Shown here piece after piece: positions 31,645-58,547 of a stretch of 64,000 bases of DNA. Location of the stretch: positions 32,001 through 96,000 of IMG/VR virus record IMGVR_UViG_3300044941_000276, one strand, 5' to 3'. A program made the translations under genes and the position numbers. The stretch is from a virus. The notes beneath the pieces were generated by a model. The model was not told where the DNA came from. It did not search any database and saw only the letters and a program-made list of their open reading frames with translations. Each line of letters opens with the position of its first letter. Within the stretch, counting starts at the first letter, position 1.

Positions 31645-32658
31645 CTAAATATCTACTCCGAAAAAGAAATCGGATACATCTTCTACTTCTTCATCTAATT
31701 TACTATTATATCGCTGTTTGCTATTATAATTGTTTTTATCATCTACAACAACTCTTTTCTTTTTTAATTCTGCAATTTCGTCAGTTAACTTATTTACATA
31801 TCCAGCGATTTTAGGTAATATTGCATAAGCTGTAGCTATTTCGAGTAATCCTTCTCTTGTATCGAGTAGATCTATTAATTCTGATCTGCCATTGTTGCTA
31901 AATATAAGTTGCCTTACATTATTTTTTACATCATCATCTACAATAAAATTATGGATGTGACTTATATTATCTATGAGCTCATCAACTACTTGATATTCTT
32001 CTCTAATTTTAGACATTTTGAGCTCATTAACTTCGTCTTCTTCCTCCCTAATTTTACGTTCAATCATATCAGATAACTCTCTTCTAGCCTGATTGAGTTT
32101 ATATTCATAATTAGGAGACTCTTTTAATAATTCTATCTCCATTGCTATTTGAGATTCATCAAAATCAGGATACATATCGGACAATTTCCAAAAAAGTACC
32201 TCATCATCGGTATATTCCTCATCGTATTCTCCAACATATCCTAAAAGTTTTTCAATAGTTTCAGTATCTCCAGAACGATAAGCGTTTATAAGATCTATTT
32301 CAAATGAATCAAGATCATCTTCGGAATCATAATCTTCAAAATTATCGTTAGCTTCACTATATCTTAATACGTCTAGCAATTGTTTATTATTAAGATCTGA
32401 TAACGGTATTTGAATAGGATCTTCATCTGTTCCACTGATAATATACTCACTTCCTATTTTAGATCTTACATAACCAAGTAAGTTAGAATCGGGACCCATA
32501 CCACCATAGGATTCTCTTGCTTTTCGATCTAATCTTTCTATTGGATCTTCCTTAATAATGTTAAAAAAAGGATCAAGTTGATTATTGTTATCTACACTTA
32601 TAGGTTCTTGATTAACATTTACAAGAACTTCATCATCATAATTATCAAAATTTGTCAT
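31645..32658 (-). CDS. Acidic scaffold-like protein
   Basis: Very Asp/Glu-rich, directly upstream of MCP. Confidence 0.65.
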   Translation of the reverse strand: MTNFDNYDDEVLVNVNQEPISVDNNNQLDPFFNIIKEDPIERLDRKARESYGGMGPDSNLLGYVRSKIGSEYIISGTDEDPIQIPLSDLNNKQLLDVLRYSEANDNFEDYDSEDDLDSFEIDLINAYRSGDTETIEKLLGYVGEYDEEYTDDEVLFWKLSDMYPDFDESQIAMEIELLKESPNYEYKLNQARRELSDMIERKIREEEDEVNELKMSKIREEYQVVDELIDNISHIHNFIVDDDVKNNVRQLIFSNNGRSELIDLLDTREGLLEIATAYAILPKIAGYVNKLTDEIAELKKKRVVVDDKNNYNSKQRYNSKLDEEVEDVSDFFFGVDI

Positions 32659-48420: not shown

Positions 48421-48872
48421 TGTATCTTATCTCTGTATTTCTTTATACGATTACCTTGAAAAAACATATCGGGATTTATCCAAAAAACATCTTTTATTAC
48501 TGTTGGAGAAATAAATCCATATCGGATCAATTCATCTCTTGCTTTAGTGTAAGTGTTATAAGATAAATTTTGTTCTTTAAGATAGCGATCTTTATTAATA
48601 TAAACCCAATCACAACCCTCATCTATTTCAAATATTAACCAAAGAAAAAGTCTTTGAGAACATGAGGATAGATCGTTTACAATCTTTCTACGTTCACTCG
48701 AAACAAATATTTTAGTAAAACGCGTAGCTTCCAACTCTATAATCTCTTTTACTAAAACATCATCATCCATCACATAATTTTTTCCTTTTATTTTATTTAC
48801 AGGAATGGATAAAGAGTTAACAAAAGGATTTTTACCTAATAAAGATTGATCTATTGATTTATTCTTTTTCAT
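48417..48872 (-). CDS. RepL-like winged-helix replication/maintenance protein
   Basis: FTKIF..LFLWL..LSYNTYTKARDELIRYGFI..FWINPDMFFQG. Confidence 0.7.
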   Translation of the reverse strand: MKKNKSIDQSLLGKNPFVNSLSIPVNKIKGKNYVMDDDVLVKEIIELEATRFTKIFVSSERRKIVNDLSSCSQRLFLWLIFEIDEGCDWVYINKDRYLKEQNLSYNTYTKARDELIRYGFISPTVIKDVFWINPDMFFQGNRIKKYRDKIQ

Positions 48873-48877
48873 TTGTG

Positions 48878-48885
48878 CAAAGCTA
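48878..48885 (-). promoter_or_regulatory. Bacteroidota -7 element immediately before RepL-like ATG (possible leaderless mRNA)
   Basis: Minus strand reads TAGCTTTG-cacaa-ATG. Confidence 0.45.
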
Positions 48886-48900
48886 ACACATATATGTATA

Positions 48901-49214
48901 TTATCATATAGTTATCATATAGATATTATCAAAATTTTGTGAGTTTTATAAAATACTATACATCTCACAAATGAGCGGTCACAAAAAATAGGGTCACAAA
49001 AAATTGTGAAATCGAAAAAGTCAAAAAATTGCTTAATCAGATATATGAGAGTAACAAAAAATGACAAAAAAAATTCAAAAAAGAACCGTCTTATAGCTTT
49101 AAGGGTATACTCGAGTAGGTCAATTTTTGGTCAAAAAACGATTGATGAGCTATATAAAAGTAAACTTTTCTCTTTTTTTCTACTCACAAAAAATTGTGAG
49201 AAAAATGTGAGATG
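48901..49214. repeat. Iteron-like direct/inverted repeats at the strand switch
   Basis: TTATCATATAG x2 (48901-22); GGTCACAAAAAAT x2 (48977, 48992); CTCACAAAAAATTGTGAG (49183); inverted TTTTGTGAG (48935) and ATGTGAGATG (49205). Confidence 0.65.
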
Positions 49215-49356
49215 GGTTCTCTAATGTTGTTTAAAGTACATCAAACGAATTTTTTTATTTTTTTATTTTTTTATTTTTTGTTTTTTGTTGAGGGAATATT
49301 TGGTCTGTACCCCCATCCTGCCCCGCTTGGGTTTGCAACTAAACACCATAAATTAT

Positions 49357-49647
49357 ATGAAATCTTACGAATTTGAATCCGGTGCTGAGTTCACCGGAGG
49401 CTCGCTCTTAGGGCGTATTGAAGTACAAGTTGAAACCTCGACGAAAGGGTCAGGTCTTAACAAAGGCAAGTGGCGCAATACTATAAAGCCGGTTGAAGTA
49501 ATCCTCACAAATAAGAAGACTGGGAAGAAAACGGCGTCTATCCGTGAGGCGTTCAATTCAAAGACTAAATTGGACGCCGGCACCTACACAGTAGGTGTCT
49601 ATGAAGCGGACATCAACAACAAATTGACAGCCTACCTGGCTTTGTAA
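49357..49647 (+). CDS. Hypothetical early protein
   Basis: ATG at 49357 after an A/T-rich leader; first gene after the strand switch. Confidence 0.65.
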   Translation: MKSYEFESGAEFTGGSLLGRIEVQVETSTKGSGLNKGKWRNTIKPVEVILTNKKTGKKTASIREAFNSKTKLDAGTYTVGVYEADINNKLTAYLAL

Positions 49648-49998
49648 GTCGGGTAGGTCCCCCTTCGGGGGTAAGTGTGCCTCAATCATTAGCCACATGA
49701 TGAGAGGCACAACCATACACTCGCCACACGGTGTATGGTAAGTAGCAAGTGTGGGCATATTTTCATTGTCTTGGTTGAAAATATGCTTCCCCAGATATCT
49801 GGGAGTGGGTTTTTTTAAAAAATCCAAGACATCCACCCCTCAGTCCGAGTGAGGGAGAGTGTGACCAAGTTGTTGTAACCATCCGACAACTTGGCACACG
49901 AGGTGGATTATGTAGGCAAATTGAAGACGCCTAATCTCGGAACGGGGTAAGCCGAAAACTCATAAAAAGAGTAGGCGTAAATTGAAAACGACTAGTTT
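49648..49998 (+). ncRNA. Structured non-coding segment 1 (hairpins + 3 pseudoknots)
   Basis: Consecutive stems; loop/downstream pairings ccacac/gtgtgg, tgtcttgg/ccaagaca and tccgag/ctcgga. Confidence 0.6.
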
Positions 49999-50256
49999 AT
50001 GACCAGGACTATCATATCGGAGGTGAACACAGCTCACCTTCATATGATCAAAGAAAGATTTGATCATGAGTACCCGCTACCAAACGGAGGGTACGTACTA
50101 TATTCGTTTTGCTCGTCGACATCAAAAGATATTGAAGCTTTAATCATTGTAGTAAAGAAAGAAAAGCTCATCAAATCGAGAGCTTTTCTTTTCACGGGGG
50201 AGGTTCTCCAATTGGAAAATTTCCTCGCTAAACATGGGATTGAAATATCCCTTTAG
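49999..50256 (+). CDS. Hypothetical protein
   Basis: 85-aa ORF. Confidence 0.55.
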   Translation: MTRTIISEVNTAHLHMIKERFDHEYPLPNGGYVLYSFCSSTSKDIEALIIVVKKEKLIKSRAFLFTGEVLQLENFLAKHGIEISL

Positions 50257-50905
50257 CGAGGTCTCCCCTTTTTTCCCCTTGCTGCCATTTAATGGGTAAA
50301 ACGGCAAGGGGGTTTTAAAGCCCTGTCAGGCGAAATTGAAGATGACAGGGCATCTTTCTCCCTACCTTGGGTAAGTAGGGAGATATTTTATACCCATCGT
50401 CGAGAGAGGATTCGACCCGTGTAAGCGAAGTGCTCTGGCCGGTCGCAGCACGGGTTGTTATCCATTTTTTACTCCTCACCTTGAGCAAGTGAGGGTGGGT
50501 GTTTGCTCACGTCCCTCAATCGGACTGCAAATGTAACGTCGTTATTTGATGGTTACTCAAGCCGGTTCGATGAGGGACACTTATTTGACTAAGACGGGGT
50601 CAGATAAGTAAAAATTAAACCGTCTCTGCCGAAAAGCTCGCGACGCGTTTTGCTCGCTGAGCATTGGCAGATTCCCCGAAAGGGGAAATTAGCGCCCCTT
50701 AAGTGGGGCTTTAGCTTGTCCGTACCATACCGGACTTAAACATAGTATGGTAAGCCTTTGTACTAGGCTTTGATTGAGGGGTAAAACCCAAGAGAAGGTA
50801 CAAAGACCGTCACCTAGCATCGCTTTTTATGGCTTTAATCATGCTATAGGTAGAATCAGAAGACGGCGCGCACAGGGTTCTTTATGAGCTTCTTACCTGT
50901 GCAAA
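50257..50905 (+). ncRNA. Structured non-coding segment 2 (at least 4 pseudoknots, one AATTGAAGA hairpin)
   Basis: No ORF over about 650 nt; almost continuous inverted repeats; see findings. Confidence 0.65.
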
Positions 50906-50912
50906 ATAAGTT

Positions 50913-50986
50913 ACTCCCATAGCTCAACTGGATAGAGCAACTGCCTTCTAAGCAGTAGGTTGCAAGTTCGAATCTTGCTAGGGGTA
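50913..50986 (+). tRNA. tRNA-Arg(TCT)
   Basis: ACTCCCA-TAGCTCAACTGGATAGAGCA-ACTGC-cttctaa-GCAGT...GCAAG-TTCGAAT-CTTGC-TAGGGGT-A; one acceptor mismatch, no encoded CCA. Confidence 0.9.
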
Positions 50987-51028
50987 CGATTAAAAAACCT
51001 AATCACAATTAAAAAAACAAAAAACGTT

Positions 51029-51445
51029 ATGAACAAGAACACATTCGTTTTTGTGATCACCATGTTGGTGGTCACAATCTTTTTGGCTGCCGCTGCGGTA
51101 GCCAAGCCCCGCCCGAAATGGGTGCGGGTTAGCCACTCTATCTTATCAACCGTTGACCGTATCGACCGAGATACGGTTGCAATTAAGCTCACCTTCGTCC
51201 GCTTTGACGGCGAAGGTCGTCCTACTATTGGTCAAAATTTGGGTCACTTTATTATAGAAGTGGCCTTCACAGTCGACCGCTCAGAGGCGGTACGCATTTT
51301 AAACGGCGGGCAGTTGTCCGCCAACGGGCATGTCCTCGCCCGTATAAGCGAGGGCACCAAAATAATTCGTGACCCTGAGGGTCGCGAAATCCGCCGTATG
51401 AAAGCGGCGGATATCTGCAAGATCCTTTATGGGTCTTCAGAGTAA
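51029..51445 (+). CDS. Exported protein with signal peptide
   Basis: ATG 51029, MNKNTFVFVITMLVVTIFLAAAAVA; the longer ORF call overlaps the tRNA. Confidence 0.7.
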   Translation: MNKNTFVFVITMLVVTIFLAAAAVAKPRPKWVRVSHSILSTVDRIDRDTVAIKLTFVRFDGEGRPTIGQNLGHFIIEVAFTVDRSEAVRILNGGQLSANGHVLARISEGTKIIRDPEGREIRRMKAADICKILYGSSE

Positions 51446-51450
51446 AAAAG

Positions 51451-51485
51451 ACAAGGCGGTTTCTATGAAATCGCCTTGTTTTTTA
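51451..51485 (+). terminator. Intrinsic terminator
   Basis: ACAAGGCGGTTTC-tat-GAAATCGCCTTGT-TTTTTT. Confidence 0.8.
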
Positions 51486-52582
51486 TCAGGGTGAGAATCC
51501 CTGACAAGCCTGTGGGGCTCATGTCTTGCTAAGGCATTGTTGCACTTGTATAGGGGAAGAGTAGTAAAGTCGAGTAATATTGCTGCGTTAGGTAATACTA
51601 TAAGCATTATGAAAGAGGAATATCTATTTTGACTATATGGCGCAATGTCTGATCAAGCATTAGTGCGGACTCAAAAATCAGGCAGTGGTACAGCCTTAAT
51701 CTGTACAAATCTTTGTTTATCAAAGATTAACAAGGAAATAACCAATACCTTGTCCTAACTATGGGTAAAATAGTAGTCGTCCTTTTTTTAAATGTATTTT
51801 TTAAACCTGTACTATCGTCCCCGGATAGTACATCAATAGTGGCACAAGGAGGCCGCGAGGGGCGAAGACATATGGTCTTCAATGTTTAACAAATCGTGGT
51901 ATTGAGCTAGACCACGTTGAAATAGTTAGCTCGCCTGTCCACAAACACGGAGGTGTGACAGGTTCATGGGAGAAGAAGAGGCCGTCAATATTAAACGACG
52001 TGTCTCTAAAGAGAAAAGGGTTTCCGTGTTGCGACTGAATCTCATGTCGCACAAGTTAACGACTTGACCCGAGATATATGTAGCTCTATACATTAACAAT
52101 AACTACGTCAACAATAGATGTAGGGAGTGGTGTATATCTATATATGTACGATTTGAGACTGGACAACTCAAATCAATATGTACAATGTCCAATAGCCGTA
52201 CGCCACAACGGCTATGATATCTTAAGATATAGGTCGATATTAAAAGACCTTATCTTAGATATAATTATTTTAGTCAAGGGCATGAATCGGGGTTGACATC
52301 CCGATAAGGGTATGGAGTAAAGACCATACTTGAAAACGTCAGCGTCCGATAATCAAATCAACAATAGATTTGAGGAGGACGTTAAGGCGAATTGAAGTCG
52401 CCGTCATTTTTCTATCCTGTACGGATAGTTGTCAAAGTCGACCATGGGACTAAGACGTAAAAACAGAAAGAAGCCTAAGTCGTGCGATGCTTCGCATCGA
52501 TATGGTGAGCGCTCATGGTTATAGTAGGAGACTACGACAATGTCGTATGTCGTTATTACTACTGAATAAGTCCGAAAGGACT
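51486..52582 (+). ncRNA. Large structured non-coding segment 3 (about 1.1 kb)
   Basis: No ORF of 60 aa or more; dense hairpins; at least 4 pseudoknots; ends at the hammerhead. Confidence 0.65.
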
Positions 52583-52638
52583 CTGTCGTCTATGTGCGTG
52601 GCTGTGCATAGGCCTGATGAGGGGTTAACCCGAAACAG
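52583..52638 (+). ncRNA. Type III hammerhead ribozyme
   Basis: CTGTC|GTCTATGTGC-gtggct-GTGCATAGGC-CTGATGA-GGG-gttaa-CCC-GAAACAG: full CUGAUGA/GAAA core, stems I-III, GUC cleavage site after 52587. Confidence 0.85.
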
Positions 52639-52728
52639 TATTGCCCGCGTAAAATAAGACTGCGTTAAGGTCTTGTGAGTGATGCGTGCCCACTCAGAAC
52701 GGCATTAATTTTTTATCCAAAATTGAAG

Positions 52729-53853
52729 ATGGATAGAAAATTAATTAACGCCCTAGAATGCGAAAAGTATATACAGAAAAAACTTTTCGCGTTCAACGCC
52801 GGCAAGACGCTGGCTAGGGCGTGGAACGCGGGGGAAAATTGTCTTCTTACCGGACCTGGTGGGTACGGTAAGACGGACGGAGCTGCTTTGTTCTTTGAGT
52901 ATCTCAAAGAACAAGGGGCTTTGTCTGACGAACGTCCATACGTATTGGCGTTCGGACAGGGCATGACTGAGGAAAGGTTATTCGCTGGGTTGGATATCAA
53001 ACGCTTTCAGAATGAAGGCGAATTGGTGTACAACCTGAAGAAGGCCTTCGTATCCTTCGAATATGTAATATTCGAGGAAATGTTCGACGCATTTCCTGGG
53101 GTATTGCTTATTCTGAAGGATGTTCTTCAGTCTAAGAGCGTACGGTTAGGCGACACCGTATTTCCCTTGCGAACTAAATTTATAGTCGCCTGTACCAACC
53201 GTAGCAATGAGGAAGTCGCTACGGATAGAAGTACATGGGCTCTTTTAGAAAGATTCGTCTTTCAAAAAGAGGTAACCTGGACTTCGTGGGAAAAGTCCGA
53301 CTACCTCTCGGCTTTCGAGGCAGCCACAGGCCAGAAAGCTGATTCCGTAATGGAGGCTGTGGCAAGAATAGCTGCTGCCAGCAGCAAAGGTGAGATGAAG
53401 ATCTCGCCTCGTACTGCTGGTAAAGGTCTTAAGGCAGTAAAACAAAACGGTAACGACATTACCGTTTTGGAAGACATTCTCGGCTTCGATAAGAAGTCGG
53501 TAAGAGAAGTCTTCACTGCTATGGAAGGCATAGCAGCAGACAAGGCTCAACGTGACCACGTAGCTGCGGTGGTCGCGTTATGTAAGCAGACAGCAGCTAC
53601 TTCTTCGAATTCCGCCATTAAATTGGCGGTTGCCGCTAAACGAGTTCACGTAGAACTCGAAAAACTTAGTGGAATTCAACGTCGTGATGCGAACGTTGAA
53701 TTGTTCGAGGAAAGCATCATTGTCATAGAGAATCTGAGGGAGTCTCTATGGCAAAGAGCCAAGTCCCTTATTAACAAGCCACCAGTTGGCAGCTTGGCAG
53801 AGTTTATACAAAACTCTAGCACAAGCTCATTCGACTGGAGCTTGTTGAGATAA
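52729..53853 (+). CDS. MoxR/RavA-like AAA+ ATPase
   Basis: GPGGYGKT Walker A, YVIFEE Walker B, ACTN sensor 1, ALLERF, ISPR; likely ATG 52729. Confidence 0.85.
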   Translation: MDRKLINALECEKYIQKKLFAFNAGKTLARAWNAGENCLLTGPGGYGKTDGAALFFEYLKEQGALSDERPYVLAFGQGMTEERLFAGLDIKRFQNEGELVYNLKKAFVSFEYVIFEEMFDAFPGVLLILKDVLQSKSVRLGDTVFPLRTKFIVACTNRSNEEVATDRSTWALLERFVFQKEVTWTSWEKSDYLSAFEAATGQKADSVMEAVARIAAASSKGEMKISPRTAGKGLKAVKQNGNDITVLEDILGFDKKSVREVFTAMEGIAADKAQRDHVAAVVALCKQTAATSSNSAIKLAVAAKRVHVELEKLSGIQRRDANVELFEESIIVIENLRESLWQRAKSLINKPPVGSLAEFIQNSSTSSFDWSLLR

Positions 53854-53931
53854 TCGTTAACCCAATCTCTTGGGTTTGACTTGCATATAAGGTTAATCGT
53901 AAAAGCAAGGTAGTTATAATTTTATGGGGTT

Positions 53932-55161
53932 ATGAAAAAAAGAACCATACCCCACCATCTGTACGTTGAGCCTACGCGGCGAGACGTACAAGAAAGATTT
54001 AAGGAGTTAGGTTTTGATAAAACCTACTCTTATGATCTCGTACGGGATATTGCTAATGCGATGTCTCACGTACAGAATGGTGGGAAAGTCACTGACGCAA
54101 TGACCAACGTCAGTGATTGGGTTCTTCCTTCTGACTATAAGTCAGAGAGGGAATATCAAAGAGCACTCTCGTATCACGAGAATGTTCAAAGATTTATTTC
54201 TTCTCTTGACTTTGACAAGTTCAGTGGCAATACTCCGCTTGCAAAAGCGGCAAGTGTTGTAGCTGCACTGTCTAGTCAAGAAGGGGGACAAGGCGAGGAG
54301 GGTGATGGTCAACCCTTGCCAATCTTCCGAGGTTCGTCAGAATCTATGGAAGAAAAGGCTAAAAAGTTGGAAGAGGCAGTTGATCAAACTGTCGAGGCCA
54401 ATAAAAGCCTTGCGAGGTACATCATCAATCCTGATGAGGCCTCCCCAGAGGTGGCTCTCGCGACCTTGAACAGCGAGAATCGGGACCTCTTAGCCAAGTT
54501 AGCGCTACTTGGTGACAGGGGTAAGATACGTTCACAGCGCACTTCTCCCACAAACAAACTCACTCAAATGAGTGAGTATTCACAGGTGGGTCGTGTGAAT
54601 AATATGAGTAGTATGTTTCTCCCAACTTTCGGGTATAAATTTGCGACCAAGCAATTGGTTGTGAAAGAACCCGAACAATCAACGAGACAAACCCTTGTCT
54701 TATTGATTGACAACAGCGGTTCTATGGACGAGACCGACAAATTAAGTTGGGTCAAAGCCATAGTAGTTAACAGATTAGACGCTGTTAGTAAGGGAGAAGC
54801 TGAGTTGTATATCGGTTGGTTTGAATGTTCTCTTGATGAAGAGAACATTGTTAAAATTGCCAACAAAAAAGAAGCCATAGCTTTTTTACAAGAAGGCTTC
54901 TTGGGTAATTTTAACGGGGGAAAAACTGATATACAACGGGCCATTGAACAAGTTTGCGAGGGAATCAAACTTGGAAGGCTCGGTAATTATTCCCTCAACG
55001 GAGTTAAGCCTCAAATCGTTGTAATGAACGATGGGCAAGACTTTGTTGATAGCAATTATAAACCCAGTGTTGTGACTCACGGGTTTATCTTAGGGCGTGA
55101 CAATGACGGAATGAAGTCAATGATCGCCAATTGCGGAGGTCACTATGAGAGATTTTTATAA
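53932..55161 (+). CDS. VWA-domain protein
   Basis: LIDNSGSM MIDAS, GGKTD, NDGQD; adjacent to MoxR ATPase. Confidence 0.85.
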   Translation: MKKRTIPHHLYVEPTRRDVQERFKELGFDKTYSYDLVRDIANAMSHVQNGGKVTDAMTNVSDWVLPSDYKSEREYQRALSYHENVQRFISSLDFDKFSGNTPLAKAASVVAALSSQEGGQGEEGDGQPLPIFRGSSESMEEKAKKLEEAVDQTVEANKSLARYIINPDEASPEVALATLNSENRDLLAKLALLGDRGKIRSQRTSPTNKLTQMSEYSQVGRVNNMSSMFLPTFGYKFATKQLVVKEPEQSTRQTLVLLIDNSGSMDETDKLSWVKAIVVNRLDAVSKGEAELYIGWFECSLDEENIVKIANKKEAIAFLQEGFLGNFNGGKTDIQRAIEQVCEGIKLGRLGNYSLNGVKPQIVVMNDGQDFVDSNYKPSVVTHGFILGRDNDGMKSMIANCGGHYERFL

Positions 55162-55368
55162 TCTTTCTTTTCCCTATGCTCTACTAATAGGGATGTAAAA
55201 CGATAGTAGCTGGAAGAAAACTACCCTACCTCAGGGTTATGTGACTATAAGGGTTAATGGGTGCGCTACCATTAGAAATGTCACGCATATAAAAATCCTG
55301 CCATTGCAGGTTGAAGCACAAAACCTTACCCAGTTTTGTGTGTATATAACTCATGGGTAATAAAAGAC

Positions 55369-55614
55369 ATGGATAACTTTTTTCTTGAGTTATTTATTAT
55401 AACTCAACAAGAAAGAATTCAATCCGAGGGATTATTTTCTATCCTTTGCCGAATTGAAGAAGGCAAGGATATGAAGAAAATCCCTTTCCATTCTCAAAAA
55501 GAGATGGAAGATTTCCTCTGGTTAAACAGAGGGAATTATCTATTCATCTCTTTGGAAGAGGCTGGGCTATTAGTGTCCACCTCTCCATTTGAGAATGGAT
55601 TGGGAGTGAATTGA
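55369..55614 (+). CDS. Hypothetical protein (start 55369 or 55471)
   Basis: In-frame ATGs; the 55471 ATG directly follows an AATTGAAGA hairpin. Confidence 0.4.
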   Translation: MDNFFLELFIITQQERIQSEGLFSILCRIEEGKDMKKIPFHSQKEMEDFLWLNRGNYLFISLEEAGLLVSTSPFENGLGVN

Positions 55615-55798
55615 TTGGGGACCACCTGCACTAATCATCGGTGGGATATAAATAGAGGATTTTTTCTAACCATTCCATTTTGTAATATTACAAATAAAGG
55701 TTGAATCTGCGACAGGCATAGGGATATGTGCGAGTAATAGCAGAAGAGGAAGCCGAAAAGCTAAGTGAGTAGGCAATAACTATCCAAAAAATTGAAGA

Positions 55799-56116
55799 AT
55801 GGATATGATCAAGTTTTTATTTCCTCAGGTAGCCAAGTCTACCTTTGGAAAAAAGATGTTTAATCGCATAGCTCCTATCGTAGAAAGACTATGCGATGAA
55901 ACATCGATGATCGCAATGCCCTCAATCGCGATGTTTCTTACTTACCATCCCGGAGCTTCTGCTCCGCAGCAGATGGTATTTAATTATCTTGCAGAAGTCG
56001 CACTGCAAGGCAACTGGAGAGTATTTGTTGCGACGTATGGGGAACTCATTTCTCCTTCTGACCCATTGGCTGTATTGGGTCAAGACGGAAGAAAACAGTT
56101 CTTCCGACCAATGTGA
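55799..56116 (+). CDS. Hypothetical protein
   Basis: 105 aa; start codon at the loop/3-prime-arm junction of an AATTGAAGA hairpin. Confidence 0.6.
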   Translation: MDMIKFLFPQVAKSTFGKKMFNRIAPIVERLCDETSMIAMPSIAMFLTYHPGASAPQQMVFNYLAEVALQGNWRVFVATYGELISPSDPLAVLGQDGRKQFFRPM

Positions 56117-56463
56117 AGCTTTACGTCCTTAACTCTGCGGTAATGCCAGAAGATGGTTATTATCGCAGAGTTAAGATAAGTAGAGAGAAGGCTTCCGAGA
56201 TACTCAATACAGCCACAGAAATTGTATCTTCTGTTGGGTATCCGGAAGTTTGTCAAATATTACATGAAATATCAGGAGTTGTTGTTCCTCTTGATATTGA
56301 AAAGCGAGTAACAACATTTACTGAAGACGAGTGTACTATATTAGTATGTAAACTTGTCTTCAGGGAAAAAGCAGAACGAAAAGGAGTTAATCGTCATACC
56401 GACATTAACGAATATGAGTTCTGCTTAGTTCATTATAAAAAAAATAACCCTTTTATCAAATAA
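56113..56463 (+). CDS. DUF1874 / AcrIII-1 ring-nuclease family homolog
   Basis: LYVLNSAVMP..IS.E.A..L..IVSSVGYPEVCQIL..GVVVP..R..ILVCKL.FR matches the STIV B116/YddF layout; GY where GH is expected. Confidence 0.6.
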   Translation: MKLYVLNSAVMPEDGYYRRVKISREKASEILNTATEIVSSVGYPEVCQILHEISGVVVPLDIEKRVTTFTEDECTILVCKLVFREKAERKGVNRHTDINEYEFCLVHYKKNNPFIK

Positions 56464-56484
56464 ATAATAAAAGGGTTATTTTTT
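56440..56484 (+). terminator. Intrinsic terminator
   Basis: AAAAAATAACCCTTTTAT...ATAAAAGGGTTATTTTTT. Confidence 0.65.
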
Positions 56485-56517
56485 AATTCATTCAAATCAT
56501 AATCGTTTATCATTCAT

Positions 56518-56712
56518 ATGGAATTATATCCTATAGTAGAATGTTCAACAAAAGAAGGAGCGTCGCTTATTGTTTCTTTCTTTTGTGAAAAAGGTTTTGA
56601 CTTCTACTTTGTATTTACAGGTAATAAGAAACCTTATCTTGTAGTTACAAATAAGGAAGGTCTAAAAGCTTTTGAGCAATGGAATCATTCATTAGCAACA
56701 ATTGTTCATTAG
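56518..56712 (+). CDS. Small hypothetical protein
   Basis: 64-aa ORF. Confidence 0.5.
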   Translation: MELYPIVECSTKEGASLIVSFFCEKGFDFYFVFTGNKKPYLVVTNKEGLKAFEQWNHSLATIVH

Positions 56713-56765
56713 CAGGTTTCATTAACAACTTATTCACTTTTCATTAGCAATTTTCATTAGCAATT
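56688..56765 (+). repeat. Five TTCATTA(G/A)CA direct repeats
   Basis: Copies at 56688, 56705, 56718, 56740 and 56753. Confidence 0.75.
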
Positions 56766-56978
56766 ATGTATCAAGTCACAAAAAATATAAACGGAGTCTA
56801 TGCTGAGGCTACGTTTAAAACAAGAGAAGAGGCCTTGCGCCAAGCCACACGTTGGTTCGATTCCATGAACACTGATATTTCAGATTTATGCGGATCGTTC
56901 ATTAGCCGTATTGTTAGCGGTAAGAATATAACTTATAGATTTCAAAAAGCATCCTTAACAATAAGACATGAAAAATGA
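56766..56978 (+). CDS. Small hypothetical protein
   Basis: 70-aa ORF. Confidence 0.55.
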   Translation: MYQVTKNINGVYAEATFKTREEALRQATRWFDSMNTDISDLCGSFISRIVSGKNITYRFQKASLTIRHEK

Positions 56979-57198
56979 AATCTATGGGTCTTTTTCGTCA
57001 ATGACATTGACGGAAGAGGGAAAGTTGATTATAAATTTTCTATCGGACAATAACGAAAAGTTTATTGTTGAAATAGAATCTTTAATAAAAGAAGATGGTA
57101 GCGGAAGAAAATTTTTAATTAATCATAAACATGTAAACTCTATTAGCGGCTATGTTGACTTTGCTACTAATAAAGGTTACATAAAAATTAAAAATTAA
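56968..57198 (+). CDS. Small hypothetical protein
   Basis: 76-aa ORF. Confidence 0.55.
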   Translation: MKNEIYGSFSSMTLTEEGKLIINFLSDNNEKFIVEIESLIKEDGSGRKFLINHKHVNSISGYVDFATNKGYIKIKN

Positions 57199-57328
57199 AT
57201 TTTTACTTTTGTTGTTATTATAACAGCAAAGGTTTATTTGCGAACTCTTAACTCAATAAGTTAAACTAATTGACTTATAAAGAGTTACAAGTTCGTCTTG
57301 TAGAGCTCACCATCAAAAATCAGATTTT

Positions 57329-57469
57329 AGAGGTGGCGCTGGATGCGCCTTGGATGCTGGCAGGCGCGCGACTGTGCAACATCGGTACTGGCAAGAAGCT
57401 GAACGACGGTTCAGTGGATGTTAGCAAAGGGCTGCTCCCTTGAGGCCGGTTCGATTCCGGCCACCTCTA
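57329..57469 (+). ncRNA. Expanded tRNA-like RNA (about 140 nt)
   Basis: AGAGGTG/CACCTCT acceptor, perfect GCCGG-TTCGATT-CCGGC T arm, enlarged middle with no 7-nt anticodon loop. Confidence 0.7.
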
Positions 57470-57483
57470 CTTAAACAAACAAA

Positions 57484-57557
57484 GGGTCCATAGCTCAGCC
57501 GGTTAGAGCATCTGACTCATAATCAGGGGGTCGCAAGTTCGAGCCCTGCTGGACCCA
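57484..57557 (+). tRNA. tRNA with CAT anticodon (Ile2 or elongator Met)
   Basis: GGGTCCA/TGGACCC acceptor, TAGCTCAGCCGGTTAGAGC, TCTGA-ctcataa-TCAGG; T stem has one mismatch. Confidence 0.88.
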
Positions 57558-57598
57558 CAATCGTTCATTCACAAAAACCGCGACTGAGGTATCAGCAA

Positions 57599-57844
57599 AT
57601 GGATGAAAGTTCCTTTACAATTATGTATATGATAACGGTAGAAGTTTATGATTGTGAAAAAGGCACTAATCGCTATGCGATAAAAGCTGCCAACTTCGAA
57701 GAAGCTGTTGAAAGATATGAAGATATCAAATCACGCATCACCGTAAACTGGACTCGCCATCCAGCAATCACCGAAGAAATTAAACACCTCGATTGTACAT
57801 ACGATTCTTTTAATGAAGGTTGTATAATCATGTCTCGTGTTTAA
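57599..57844 (+). CDS. Small hypothetical protein
   Basis: 81-aa ORF; start may be a downstream ATG. Confidence 0.5.
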   Translation: MDESSFTIMYMITVEVYDCEKGTNRYAIKAANFEEAVERYEDIKSRITVNWTRHPAITEEIKHLDCTYDSFNEGCIIMSRV

Positions 57845-57852
57845 AAATATTA

Positions 57853-57955
57853 CCATCTATCGTCTAAGTAAGACGATTTGACAATCGCTTATAACAAAAA
57901 TTGAAGATTATAAGCAATTGTTAAATAAATACAGGTTCGTATCCTGTTAGATGGT
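57853..57955 (+). ncRNA. tRNA-like RNA whose anticodon arm is a 19-bp stem with a CAAAAATTGAAGA loop
   Basis: CCATCTA/TAGATGG acceptor; TC; GTCT-aagta-AGAC D arm; long arm; AAAT; ACAGG-TTCGTAT-CCTGT T arm. Confidence 0.75.
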
Positions 57956-58074
57956 CAATTAATCACCTGAGTTTAAGAGATTCACCCTAAGGTAACTGAC
58001 GTTAAACTTTTTGTCAGGAGAATAAGGTTATGACATAAGTCATAGGTGATTTAAGATTTTAAATTATTTATCGT

Positions 58075-58296
58075 ATGAAAGTTTACGTTCATAGGTACCA
58101 ATTTGAAGGAGTATTAATCGAATTAATATTGCCTCATAACAAGCCTATTGAAGTTGGTGATGCGATTTCAATTGAAGAAATTGAAATTGAACCAATAAGA
58201 ATAGAGCACGCAATCTTAGATGCGGTTGTCGTATATTTTTCTTATAGAAGCAAAGAAAGAAGTGTAATCGTTGACAAATCAAATCTTGAAAAGTAA
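58075..58296 (+). CDS. Small hypothetical protein
   Basis: 73-aa ORF. Confidence 0.55.
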   Translation: MKVYVHRYQFEGVLIELILPHNKPIEVGDAISIEEIEIEPIRIEHAILDAVVVYFSYRSKERSVIVDKSNLEK

Positions 58297-58547
58297 TGGA
58301 AGAAATAATCTTGGCGTTGTTAGACACTTGTCTAATCAGAGAACGCGACCCGCGACAATTTCCAATATCAGAAGACACTATGTATCGGTATAATATGCCT
58401 GAGCAATTATGCGATACTATTGTATCTATTGGTAAATATGTTGAACCGCAAACAGAAGCAGATCGCTATCGTGAAGCTGCAATTGGTAAAACATATATCG
58501 TTGACATTTATCAATTATATAATACAATCATTTCTCATGGAATTTAA
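58296..58547 (+). CDS. Small hypothetical protein
   Basis: 83 aa, TAATG coupling. Confidence 0.55.
   Translation: MEEIILALLDTCLIRERDPRQFPISEDTMYRYNMPEQLCDTIVSIGKYVEPQTEADRYREAAIGKTYIVDIYQLYNTIISHGI

Follow-up and report, generated by a model that had tools for sequence, protein, structure and literature searches.

A ribozyme-led MoxR–VWA operon with excess folding of its coding strand in a divergent crAss-like phage

RNA viruses show excess folding along whole coding regions (genome-scale ordered RNA structure, GORS), the genomes of MS2 and Qbeta are folded, and the MS2 operator hairpin contains a start codon. Here we analyse a window of 64,000 nucleotides (nt), positions 32,001 to 96,000 of the 105.6-kb viral record IMGVR_UViG_3300044941_000276, and in it a plus-strand operon that encodes a MoxR-type ATPase and its VWA-domain partner and is preceded by one certain and one probable self-cleaving ribozyme. 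As in GORS viruses, MS2 and Qbeta, its coding regions are folded in excess of permuted controls, and helices turn over fast while the foldedness is kept. Unlike them, it is the transcript of a double-stranded DNA phage, a single operon of ~7 kb, for which no role in RNA replication or packaging is expected. Our literature search returned no report of folding along whole coding regions in a DNA-phage operon.

Hammerhead ribozymes flank genes in phage operons, and the early transcript of a halovirus begins at a hammerhead cut (Perreault et al. 2011, PMC3088659). In the clustered phage hammerheads (HHphage, haloviruses HF1/HF2), the ribozymes lie in the leaders of co-oriented genes, as they do here, and are thought to divide long transcripts into gene-length mRNAs; one of the phage hammerheads immediately precedes the first early gene, and its cut coincides with a mapped 5' end (PMC3088659). 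Different ribozyme classes are known to share genetic contexts (PMC8782182, PMC4604424). What sets the present locus apart from the operons of PMC3088659 is that a Hatchet and a hammerhead serve one operon, either class filling the same leader slot across relatives, and that the mRNA is hyper-folded and carries a loop-specific start hairpin together with the ribozyme, neither of which we found described there.

The Hatchet in the window agrees with its family (RF02678; Weinberg et al. 2015; Li et al. 2015, PMC4604424) in matching the full-length model, in having a P0 hairpin 5' of the cleavage site and in carrying a P4 insert that brings it to ~200 nt, like Ht-1. In the available text of the 2015 description, all 210 Hatchet representatives come from metagenomes and are given neither a host nor a gene partner, whereas the present one is carried by a crAss-like phage and partnered with a MoxR-VWA-DUF1874 operon. 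The same text reports P0 in ~90% of Hatchets and gives it no sequence conservation (PMC4604424); in the distant loci studied here, the P0 loops share a AUAGAAGA motif. By its genes the carrier is a divergent crAss-like phage: its large terminase is closest to those of Crassvirales, with an identity of only 26–28%, and crAss-type PHROGs match the portal and the terminase. The Hatchet thus gains a crAss-like phage as carrier and, in several lineages, a position in the leader of a single operon, with a hammerhead in that slot in the window. Our literature search found no link between self-cleaving ribozymes and MoxR or VWA genes, although a published association of Hatchet with one of these genes may exist.

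Folding of the operon transcript

The genes from MoxR to the end of the operon are as follows.

52729..53853, plus strand: MoxR-type AAA+ ATPase of the bpMoxR family, Walker A GPGGYGKT (PF20030, 30.8 bits against 27; PF07728, AAA_5)
53932..55161, plus strand: VWA-domain partner (Pfam VWA_2, 29.1 bits against 27)
55444..55614 including its hairpin, plus strand: 47-aa gene with ATG at 55471, the part of 'orf92' conserved by tblastn
55799..56116, plus strand: orf105, an open reading frame (ORF)
56113..56463, plus strand: DUF1874 / STIV B116-like protein of the AcrIII-1 fold family (PF08960, 33.2 bits against 26)

The initial annotation of this DNA had named the MoxR/VWA pair and the DUF1874 homolog, which Pfam matches bear out, and had attributed the folding to the non-coding DNA between the genes. 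We folded the plus strand in windows of 120 nt and compared the island at 49.5–56.5 kb with 221 windows elsewhere. The mean z score is -3.16 in the island, where 51% of the windows fall below -3, and -0.36 elsewhere, where none falls below -4. Folding is not special to the non-coding DNA, because the genes are more folded than the gaps: mean z is -4.26 in MoxR, -4.12 in ORF138 (a small gene upstream) and -3.39 in VWA, and ranges from -2.0 to -3.8 in the listed gaps (-3.8 in the leader at 49648..49998 and -2.15 at 51486-52728). The whole GC-rich block (~49.3-56.5 kb) is hairpin-dense on the plus strand, with the genes exceeding the gaps, and back-to-back hairpins of 8–25 bp inside MoxR, VWA and orf105 reach z of -5 to -10. 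'Wall-to-wall' pairing overstates the case, since the minimum free energy (MFE) fold pairs 64% of the island bases against 56% in control DNA, yet per base the fold is about twice as stable (-0.35 against -0.19 kcal/mol/nt). A crude scan for H-type pseudoknots gave 20 candidates, about twice the 9.5 +/- 2.9 of shuffled sequences, which falls short of confirming the at least 13 pseudoknots previously proposed.

The excess remains when protein and codon usage are held constant. Permutation of synonymous codons gives z of -19.2 for MoxR, -16.9 for VWA, -7.8 for DUF1874, -7.1 for ORF138, -5.5 for the small upstream gene orf85 and -4.9 for orf105; in six control genes of the same phage, it ranges from -0.2 to -1.8. 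Folding is 17% better for the sense strand than for the antisense, and the sense fold has 234 G.U pairs against 113, compared with 150 against 152 in a control region. Together, the better folding of the sense strand and its G.U excess indicate a constraint on the plus strand as a single strand, most simply as a transcript.

A separate IMG/VR contig, L001, is 96-97% identical over flanks and block, and therefore the arrangement is not an assembly artefact. It is the one close relative that we found on searching IMG/VR by MoxR, by the large terminase (TerL), by VWA and by MoxR alignment. The window MoxR has 47 homologs in a large protein collection, among which P0002-P0005 are 59-77% identical; searches of 50,697 GenBank phage records and 185,579 prokaryote species genomes found no member of its subfamily. 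A scan of metagenomes yielded 16 loci with MoxR identities of 40-54%. These distant loci keep the order MoxR, VWA, a small protein homologous to the last 47 aa of orf92, and DUF1874, with MoxR and VWA adjacent in all loci; they have short leaders and no tRNAs, and their GC excess is milder but present in every locus.

MoxR, VWA and DUF1874 have z of -4.6 to -11.3 in L006, L010, L012, L013, L016, L017 and L018, which represent five further lineages. The exception is L007 (L007:2734-3903), which encodes a MoxR of the same subfamily at z +0.7 and has neither Hatchet nor start hairpin, and so the ATPase protein does not in itself force the folding. Exact base pairs are shared at 19-35% between genes whose proteins are 70-82% identical (slid control <1%) and at 0-4% where the proteins are 41-50% identical. 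This turnover of pairs with z maintained fits selection for overall foldedness, with individual helices being replaced. In summary, the plus-strand transcript, its coding parts included, seems to be selected to self-fold into near-continuous local hairpins. Coding sequences folded like structural RNA (z -17 to -19), and staying so at 40-50% protein identity, were not found described for DNA phages.

Ribozymes and start-codon hairpins

The leader of the operon holds two self-cleaving ribozymes, of which we regard the Hatchet as certain and the hammerhead, from its descriptor match, as probable.

51451..51479, plus strand: Hatchet P0 hairpin, 13 bp followed by a U run, terminator-like (fold)
51482..51683, plus strand: Hatchet self-cleaving ribozyme with a long P4 insert (RF02678, 70.3 bits against a cut-off of 51, full model 1-133)
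51684..52582, plus strand: ORF-poor RNA of 0.9 kb between the ribozymes, with shared-loop hairpin 3 and two AACAAUA-loop hairpins
52583..52638, plus strand: type III hammerhead ribozyme candidate (descriptor match)

The Hatchet had escaped the initial annotation, as had two DUF805b motifs. Its cleavage is expected at the 5' edge of the element (predicted at ~51485), and the P0 hairpin lies a few bases 5' of P1, with its pairing preserved in L001. The hammerhead had been proposed before, and a type III descriptor now retrieves it as its single match in the window, where 0.03 matches are expected on both strands and 0.001 on the plus strand of the island. It has a stem III of 4 bp, C17 at 52587, a stem I of 11 bp, CUGAUGA, a stem II of 3 bp and GAAA. 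The core C3-U-G-A-N-G-A9, G12-A-A14, the A15.1-U16.1 pair and H17 are all present, and there are no mispairs next to the core (G1.1-C2.1, G10.1-C11.1, A15.1-U16.1), in agreement with the acceptance rule of PMC3088659. The site is kept in L001, where one U.G pair has become U-A. The two ribozymes delimit 1.1 kb of RNA without a convincing ORF. In the window it is the hammerhead that takes the leader slot before MoxR, the Hatchet being 1 kb farther upstream, whereas the Hatchet lies ~50 nt 5' of the MoxR start in 8 of the 13 distant loci with upstream sequence, from about four lineages.

Seven hairpins with a AAUUGAAG(A) loop and unrelated stems, a family that the initial annotation had spotted, were recovered in the region, where shuffles of the island give 1.0; all seven are kept in L001.

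49913-49933, plus strand: shared-loop hairpin 1 (fold)
50320-50351, plus strand: shared-loop hairpin 2, stem of 9 bp; a 10-codon mini-ORF starts from the loop edge at 50343
52386-52402, plus strand: shared-loop hairpin 3 (fold)
52704..52745, plus strand: MoxR start-codon hairpin, stem of 16 bp, loop AAAUUGAAGA, AUG 52729 at the edge of loop and 3' arm
55444-55468, plus strand: shared-loop hairpin 5, 3 nt before ATG 55471 of the 47-aa gene
55781-55805, plus strand: shared-loop hairpin 6, enclosing the orf105 AUG 55799 and built like the MoxR start hairpin
57887-57915, plus strand: shared-loop hairpin 7, capping the 'anticodon' arm of a tRNA-shaped scaffold, identical in L001

One loop on unrelated stems suggests a common binding partner. 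Four of the hairpins stand on or just before starts (MoxR, orf105, the 47-aa gene and the mini-ORF), which indicates action in cis. In the eight Hatchet-bearing distant loci (L006, L008, L009, L010, L012, L017, L020 and L021), a 7-bp hairpin with the loop AAAUAGAAGA(A/C) includes the MoxR AUG in its 3' arm. Their stems differ between loci, the 5' arm varying to match the second codon, and the purine-rich loop has the consensus AAAU(U/A)GAAGA. The AUAGAAGA motif of their P0 loops is the one seen in the start hairpin, and in L010 the same loop hairpin (L010:7812-7834) recurs where the small-protein homolog begins. We found no Rfam family for the start-codon hairpin, and none in the literature searched; it is a candidate new cis-regulatory RNA motif. 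The initial annotation had recognised no described family in the region as a whole, which holds for this hairpin and for the folded coding sequences, absent from Rfam and the literature searched, but not for the Hatchet, DUF805b and hammerhead elements, which are described.

The AUG of VWA (53932) is likewise at the border of a hairpin (53925-53960), here with an A-rich loop, which fits a loop display of start sites along the operon. A second hairpin family, with two copies only (52099-52127 and 52349-52377), has differing stems of 6-7 bp, the loop AACAAUA and GGAG just 3'.

Explanations for the folded operon

The explanation that we favour, tentatively, is that the locus yields a MoxR-VWA operon mRNA that is processed by ribozymes and at tRNAs, is selected for global folding as protection and carries loop-specific start hairpins. 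The conserved operon module consists of the MoxR ATPase, VWA, the 47-aa protein and the DUF1874-like protein, with variable small-gene cassettes and a tRNA ahead of it in this phage. A long plus-strand transcript would be cut at ~51485 by the Hatchet, after 52587 by the hammerhead, and by RNase P and RNase Z at the tRNA, leaving pieces with 5'-OH or structured ends. Folding would then be a shield against single-strand-specific RNases, Rho and RNA-guided targeting, and translation would begin at AUG-enclosing hairpins whose purine-rich loop may be read by the ribosome or by another factor, thereby gating translation. The protective purpose is the weakest link of this package, and we can only infer it. 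Should folding be a shield, this would amount to a passive counter-defence of a new kind, and the synonymous sites of these genes would not be neutral. The fixed loop of the start hairpins makes their binding partner findable.

Several points weigh against this explanation. That the transcript is early (an attribute taken from its position), is polycistronic and is cleaved in vivo is argued from the sequence, and long perfect hairpins could attract RNase III instead of protecting. L001 has no Hatchet, as a 266-bp segment that includes it (51482-51747) is missing, and L013 is hyper-folded without a detectable ribozyme; the parts of the module are therefore separable. The hammerhead has no RF00008 match, its best Rfam score being 16.5 bits against 37 for Hammerhead_II (E 0.36, 141 nt). 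In a nine-copy alignment of the start hairpin, all 6 stem pairs vary on both sides and 97.9% of the cells are paired, a point in favour of the hairpin, but this figure is partly circular because the alignment was partly chosen for stem-forming members. The covariance model of the hairpin, with 23 positions, is too short: copies outside the training set have E of 0.16-2.5, and a few minus-strand matches score alike. Within the genes, helix-level covariation is weak, double changes that keep pairing amounting to 0.31-0.69 (slid controls, 0.30-0.40). The enrichment of compensatory changes is no more than modest (ORF138 shows five compensatory double changes relative to L001), in a comparison made on sequences other than the intermediate MoxR relatives of 59-77% identity (P0002-P0005). 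Finally, mutational bias could partly imitate the signal of overall foldedness.

A broader and bolder version, which we think rather unlikely, would make the locus one of a class of conserved 'armoured' mRNA operons of phages, with nearly fully paired coding sequences, interchangeable ribozymes trimming the 5' end and the loop hairpin as sole entry, probably forming a counter-defence module that survives single-strand RNases and Cas13 or type III immunity. It is still puzzling what small self-cleaving ribozymes do for bacteria and phages, and such a reading, if true, would give them a concrete job.

The last gene of the operon may lend indirect support to an anti-defence role, as it belongs to the Pfam family of AcrIII-1/Crn2 (bioRxiv 10.1101/778746), with which its core fold aligns. 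Its profile matches in the PDB are Csx1-Crn2-type chains and AFV3-109. However, the GY of the window protein aligns with the GH of AFV3-109 and of 8y7f/8y6z, and with the GA of 8y7g, an Ala variant chain. Tyr stands in place of the catalytic His in all 7 module homologs (window, L001, L006, L010, L012, L017 and L018; motif SSV[G/A]YPE), unlike in AcrIII-1/Crn2, where this residue (His47 of SIRV1 gp29) is 'absolutely conserved' (bioRxiv 10.1101/778746). Cleavage of cyclic tetra-adenylate (cA4) by the known mechanism is thus not expected, and we rejected an active AcrIII-1 ring nuclease for this gene. The Tyr variant may instead bind a cyclic nucleotide without cleaving it, or have another role. 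Among homologs, it is always found downstream of MoxR-VWA.

Translation control is an unlikely alternative to a protective role. The folding would slow ribosomes and hide starts, so that MoxR-VWA is made slowly, in a fixed ratio or after a factor, such as a helicase, an RNA-binding protein or a shift in temperature, has opened the loops, nuclease protection being incidental. The AUGs of MoxR, orf105, the 47-aa gene and the mini-ORF, in or beside loop hairpins, would all be explained, as would the VWA AUG at a hairpin with an A-rich loop and the conservation of loop and position between lineages. The arrangement also recalls the operator hairpins of RNA phages and the targets of T4 RegA. On the other hand, initiation could be controlled without folding 7 kb of coding sequence, the start stems of the distant loci are weak (7 bp, AU-rich), and L007 makes the same protein family without these features.

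The initial annotation had proposed that the island gives rise to many small folded RNAs that titrate host defence or regulatory proteins. Such small stable RNAs, set free by the ribozymes and tRNA processing, would act in trans as decoys or sponges, with the tRNA-scaffolded AAUUGAAGA hairpin and the copies away from starts titrating a loop-binding factor much as CsrB does CsrA. Part of this proposal stands: two ribozymes, two tRNAs and three tRNA-like elements make for an RNA-rich, processable transcript. About 3 kb of the island are ORF-free and folded. The gaps have no plus-strand ORF of at least 60 aa under code 11, and reading TAG as Q or TGA as W opens none, although the last listed gap holds an 81-aa ORF (57599-57844) that is kept in L001. 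Of the seven loop hairpins, three or four lie away from start codons, one of them on a tRNA-shaped scaffold that would be processed and stable; the 1.1-kb RNA between the ribozymes has no convincing ORF; and in the distant loci the upstream cleavage product keeps P0, with the loop motif of the start hairpin.

We nevertheless find it distinctly unlikely that small decoy RNAs are the main product. The strongest folding is in conserved protein-coding genes, which surpass the gaps, and four of the loop hairpins are at starts. Non-coding stretches other than the Hatchet and the start hairpin are not conserved past the 96%-identical L001, and the distant loci manage with short leaders and without tRNAs. 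Pseudo-ToxI, CRISPR-repeat-mimic RNAs, GOLLD and ROOL are likewise structured non-coding RNAs of phages near tRNAs, but the island has no such repeat arrays or Rfam match. Tandem Repeats Finder detected no array of ~36-nt repeats in 48800-58300, as a ToxI-like RNA would have; a search for direct repeats, relevant to CRISPR-repeat mimics, returned short matches of 2-3 copies and the two tRNAs only; and in Rfam neither GOLLD nor ROOL was matched, whether at the gathering score or with E relaxed to 1.

A known crAss-like phage, phi14:2, does make abundant early non-coding RNAs (bioRxiv 10.1101/2020.03.07.982082), a precedent in favour of decoys. There too, long ORF-free stretches open a rightward early block, and they are transcribed from the earliest time point. 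However, the phi14:2 region has z about 0, no Hatchet, hammerhead or loop hairpins, and a tmRNA-like gene instead; it is not hyper-folded, and we rejected it as a homolog or structural analog. The tmRNA-like match in Cellulophaga phage phi14:2 (NC_021806, 4031-4502) scores 46 bits against a cut-off of 47 (E 4.7e-16) and sits inside the intergenic region of the abundant early non-coding RNA.

A role at the level of DNA or transcription is very unlikely. Hairpins extruded from the DNA would act as N4-like promoters or as entry sites for a virion RNA polymerase, or the nascent RNA would fold on itself off a single-stranded template, countering R-loops. N4 promoters have a stem of 5-7 bp and a loop of 3 nt and lie upstream of early starts. 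The loops in the window measure 7-14 nt, with three to four of the hairpins (four by the count above) at or beside an AUG, and N4-type hairpin promoters were rejected on these grounds. The idea draws on the position of the block directly after the strand switch and on the virion polymerase of a crAss-like phage, which transcribes single-stranded DNA well and double-stranded DNA hardly, and for which no early promoter motif was found (bioRxiv 10.1101/2020.03.07.982082). Yet the twofold G.U excess of the sense strand indicates RNA rather than cruciforms of duplex DNA, the shared-loop hairpins are inside the transcript, downstream of ribozymes, and the early region of phi14:2 is not hyper-folded.

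Least probable is a recently acquired foreign or selfish module that owes its GC and folding to a previous host or to an RNA-level life style (e.g. ribozyme-bounded RNA circles): GC of 0.45-0.49 against 0.30 in the flanks, the variation of the Hatchet and of one gene cassette between 96%-identical phages and the 81-86% identity of 49941-51481 between flanks of 96-97% would suit it, but a milder GC excess is found in every distant locus and can follow from selection for stable helices, synteny and vertical divergence hold across lineages, neither the 185,579 prokaryote species genomes nor the 50,697 GenBank phage records yielded the MoxR subfamily, and Perreault et al. (PMC3088659), who looked at clustered phage hammerheads for products that were circular or spliced, found none.

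Other features of the block and its flanks

The minus strand is filled by structural genes up to ~48.9 kb, and plus-strand genes start at ~49.3 kb. GC rises from ~0.30 to 0.45-0.49 across 49.3-56.4 kb, the step from 0.30 to 0.45 being at the gene 49357..49647, and it drops again, back to 0.30 past 56.2-56.6 kb. By DNA, GenBank phages matched only the tRNA-Arg, and the structural block had no megablast match. The remaining features of the region are listed below.

49357..49647, plus strand: first gene of the GC-rich block (ORF, 96 aa), 76% identical in L001 with an equivalent ATG start
49648..49998, plus strand: folded leader with shared-loop hairpin 1, a DUF805b motif and a weaker AAAUUGAAA hairpin just 5' of the orf85 ATG
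49942..49977, plus strand: DUF805b motif (RF02914, 36.1 bits, barely above the cut-off of 35.6)
49999..50256, plus strand: orf85, small protein, 81% identical in L001
50257..50905, plus strand: ORF-free folded stretch with shared-loop hairpin 2 and a closed multi-stem domain at ~50474-50600
50913..50987, plus strand: tRNA-Arg (TCT) (ARAGORN; Rfam tRNA, 65.6 bits)
51029..51445, plus strand: ORF138, predicted secreted or membrane protein with a hydrophobic N-terminal segment
55743..55775, plus strand: DUF805b-like motif (32.1 bits, under the 35.6 cut-off)
56444..56484, plus strand: terminator-like hairpin and U run at the end of the GC-rich block (z -5.9)
57240..57310, plus strand: decayed tRNA-like element (L001 copy, 35.8 bits as tRNA)
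57328..57470, plus strand: tRNA-like element with an 8-bp acceptor stem, a canonical T arm and an insert of ~90 nt between them
57484..57558, plus strand: tRNA-Met (CAT) (ARAGORN, Rfam)
57852..57955, plus strand: tRNA-shaped scaffold (MFE cloverleaf, z -7.5)

What was called orf92 is probably the 47-aa gene from 55471; its tblastn matches in L012, L006 and L010 cover the C-terminal part only. The third, beta-propeller component of the 'ternary' bpMoxR systems (PF20030) was found neither in the window block nor in the distant loci. ORF138 occurs only in the window and L001 (L001 ORF 8643-9056), and the fold at 50470-50600 has z -5.0. Identity to L001 is only 81-86% over 49941-51481, with 96-97% in the surroundings, which by this comparison is a segment of local divergence or a recombination hot spot.

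The DUF805b, DUF805 and DUF1874 RNA motifs (Weinberg et al. 2017, PMC5737381; RF02914) are, in the available text of their description, small structured motifs 5' of short genes, as is the case here, and the DUF1874 RNA motif repeats in successive intergenic regions as motif, ORF, motif, ORF (PMC5737381). The L001 copies of DUF805b score 46.4 and 43.7 bits. Between two copies, L001 has an extra cassette of ~0.6 kb (L001:7045-7715) with an ORF of ~140-170 aa, where the window has one motif; the arrangement can be likened to that of the DUF1874 RNA motif and suggests that cassettes are gained and lost by recombination between motif copies. The AAAU(U/A)GAAGA start hairpin is separate from these motifs, and the DUF1874 RNA motif was not found here, though the DUF1874 protein gene is present.

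Both tRNAs of the initial annotation, Arg-TCT and Met-CAT, were called by ARAGORN and Rfam, and its two tRNA mimics correspond to the cloverleaf at 57852-57955, which neither ARAGORN nor the Rfam tRNA models match, and to the acceptor stem and T arm at 57328-57470. We rejected a tmRNA for the latter: the RF00023 match is partial (19.9 bits against 47, E 7.5e-5), there is no ARAGORN call, and the third acceptor pair is not G.U. The window copy of the decayed element at 57240..57310 differs by a 2-nt deletion in the T loop and by changes in the D arm.

In the AT-rich divergent region between the minus- and plus-strand gene blocks sits a 16-nt inverted repeat, TCACAAAAAATTGTGA, with exact copies at 48994-49009 and 49184-49199 and variants at 48979-49000 and 49022-49038. 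The copies resemble operators at the strand switch to which a dimeric DNA-binding protein would bind. Past the GC-rich block, between two small AT-rich ORFs, 56699-56765 holds ~5.4 tandem copies of a 13-nt unit of the TTCATTAGCA type, an array that could be iteron-like or a promoter.

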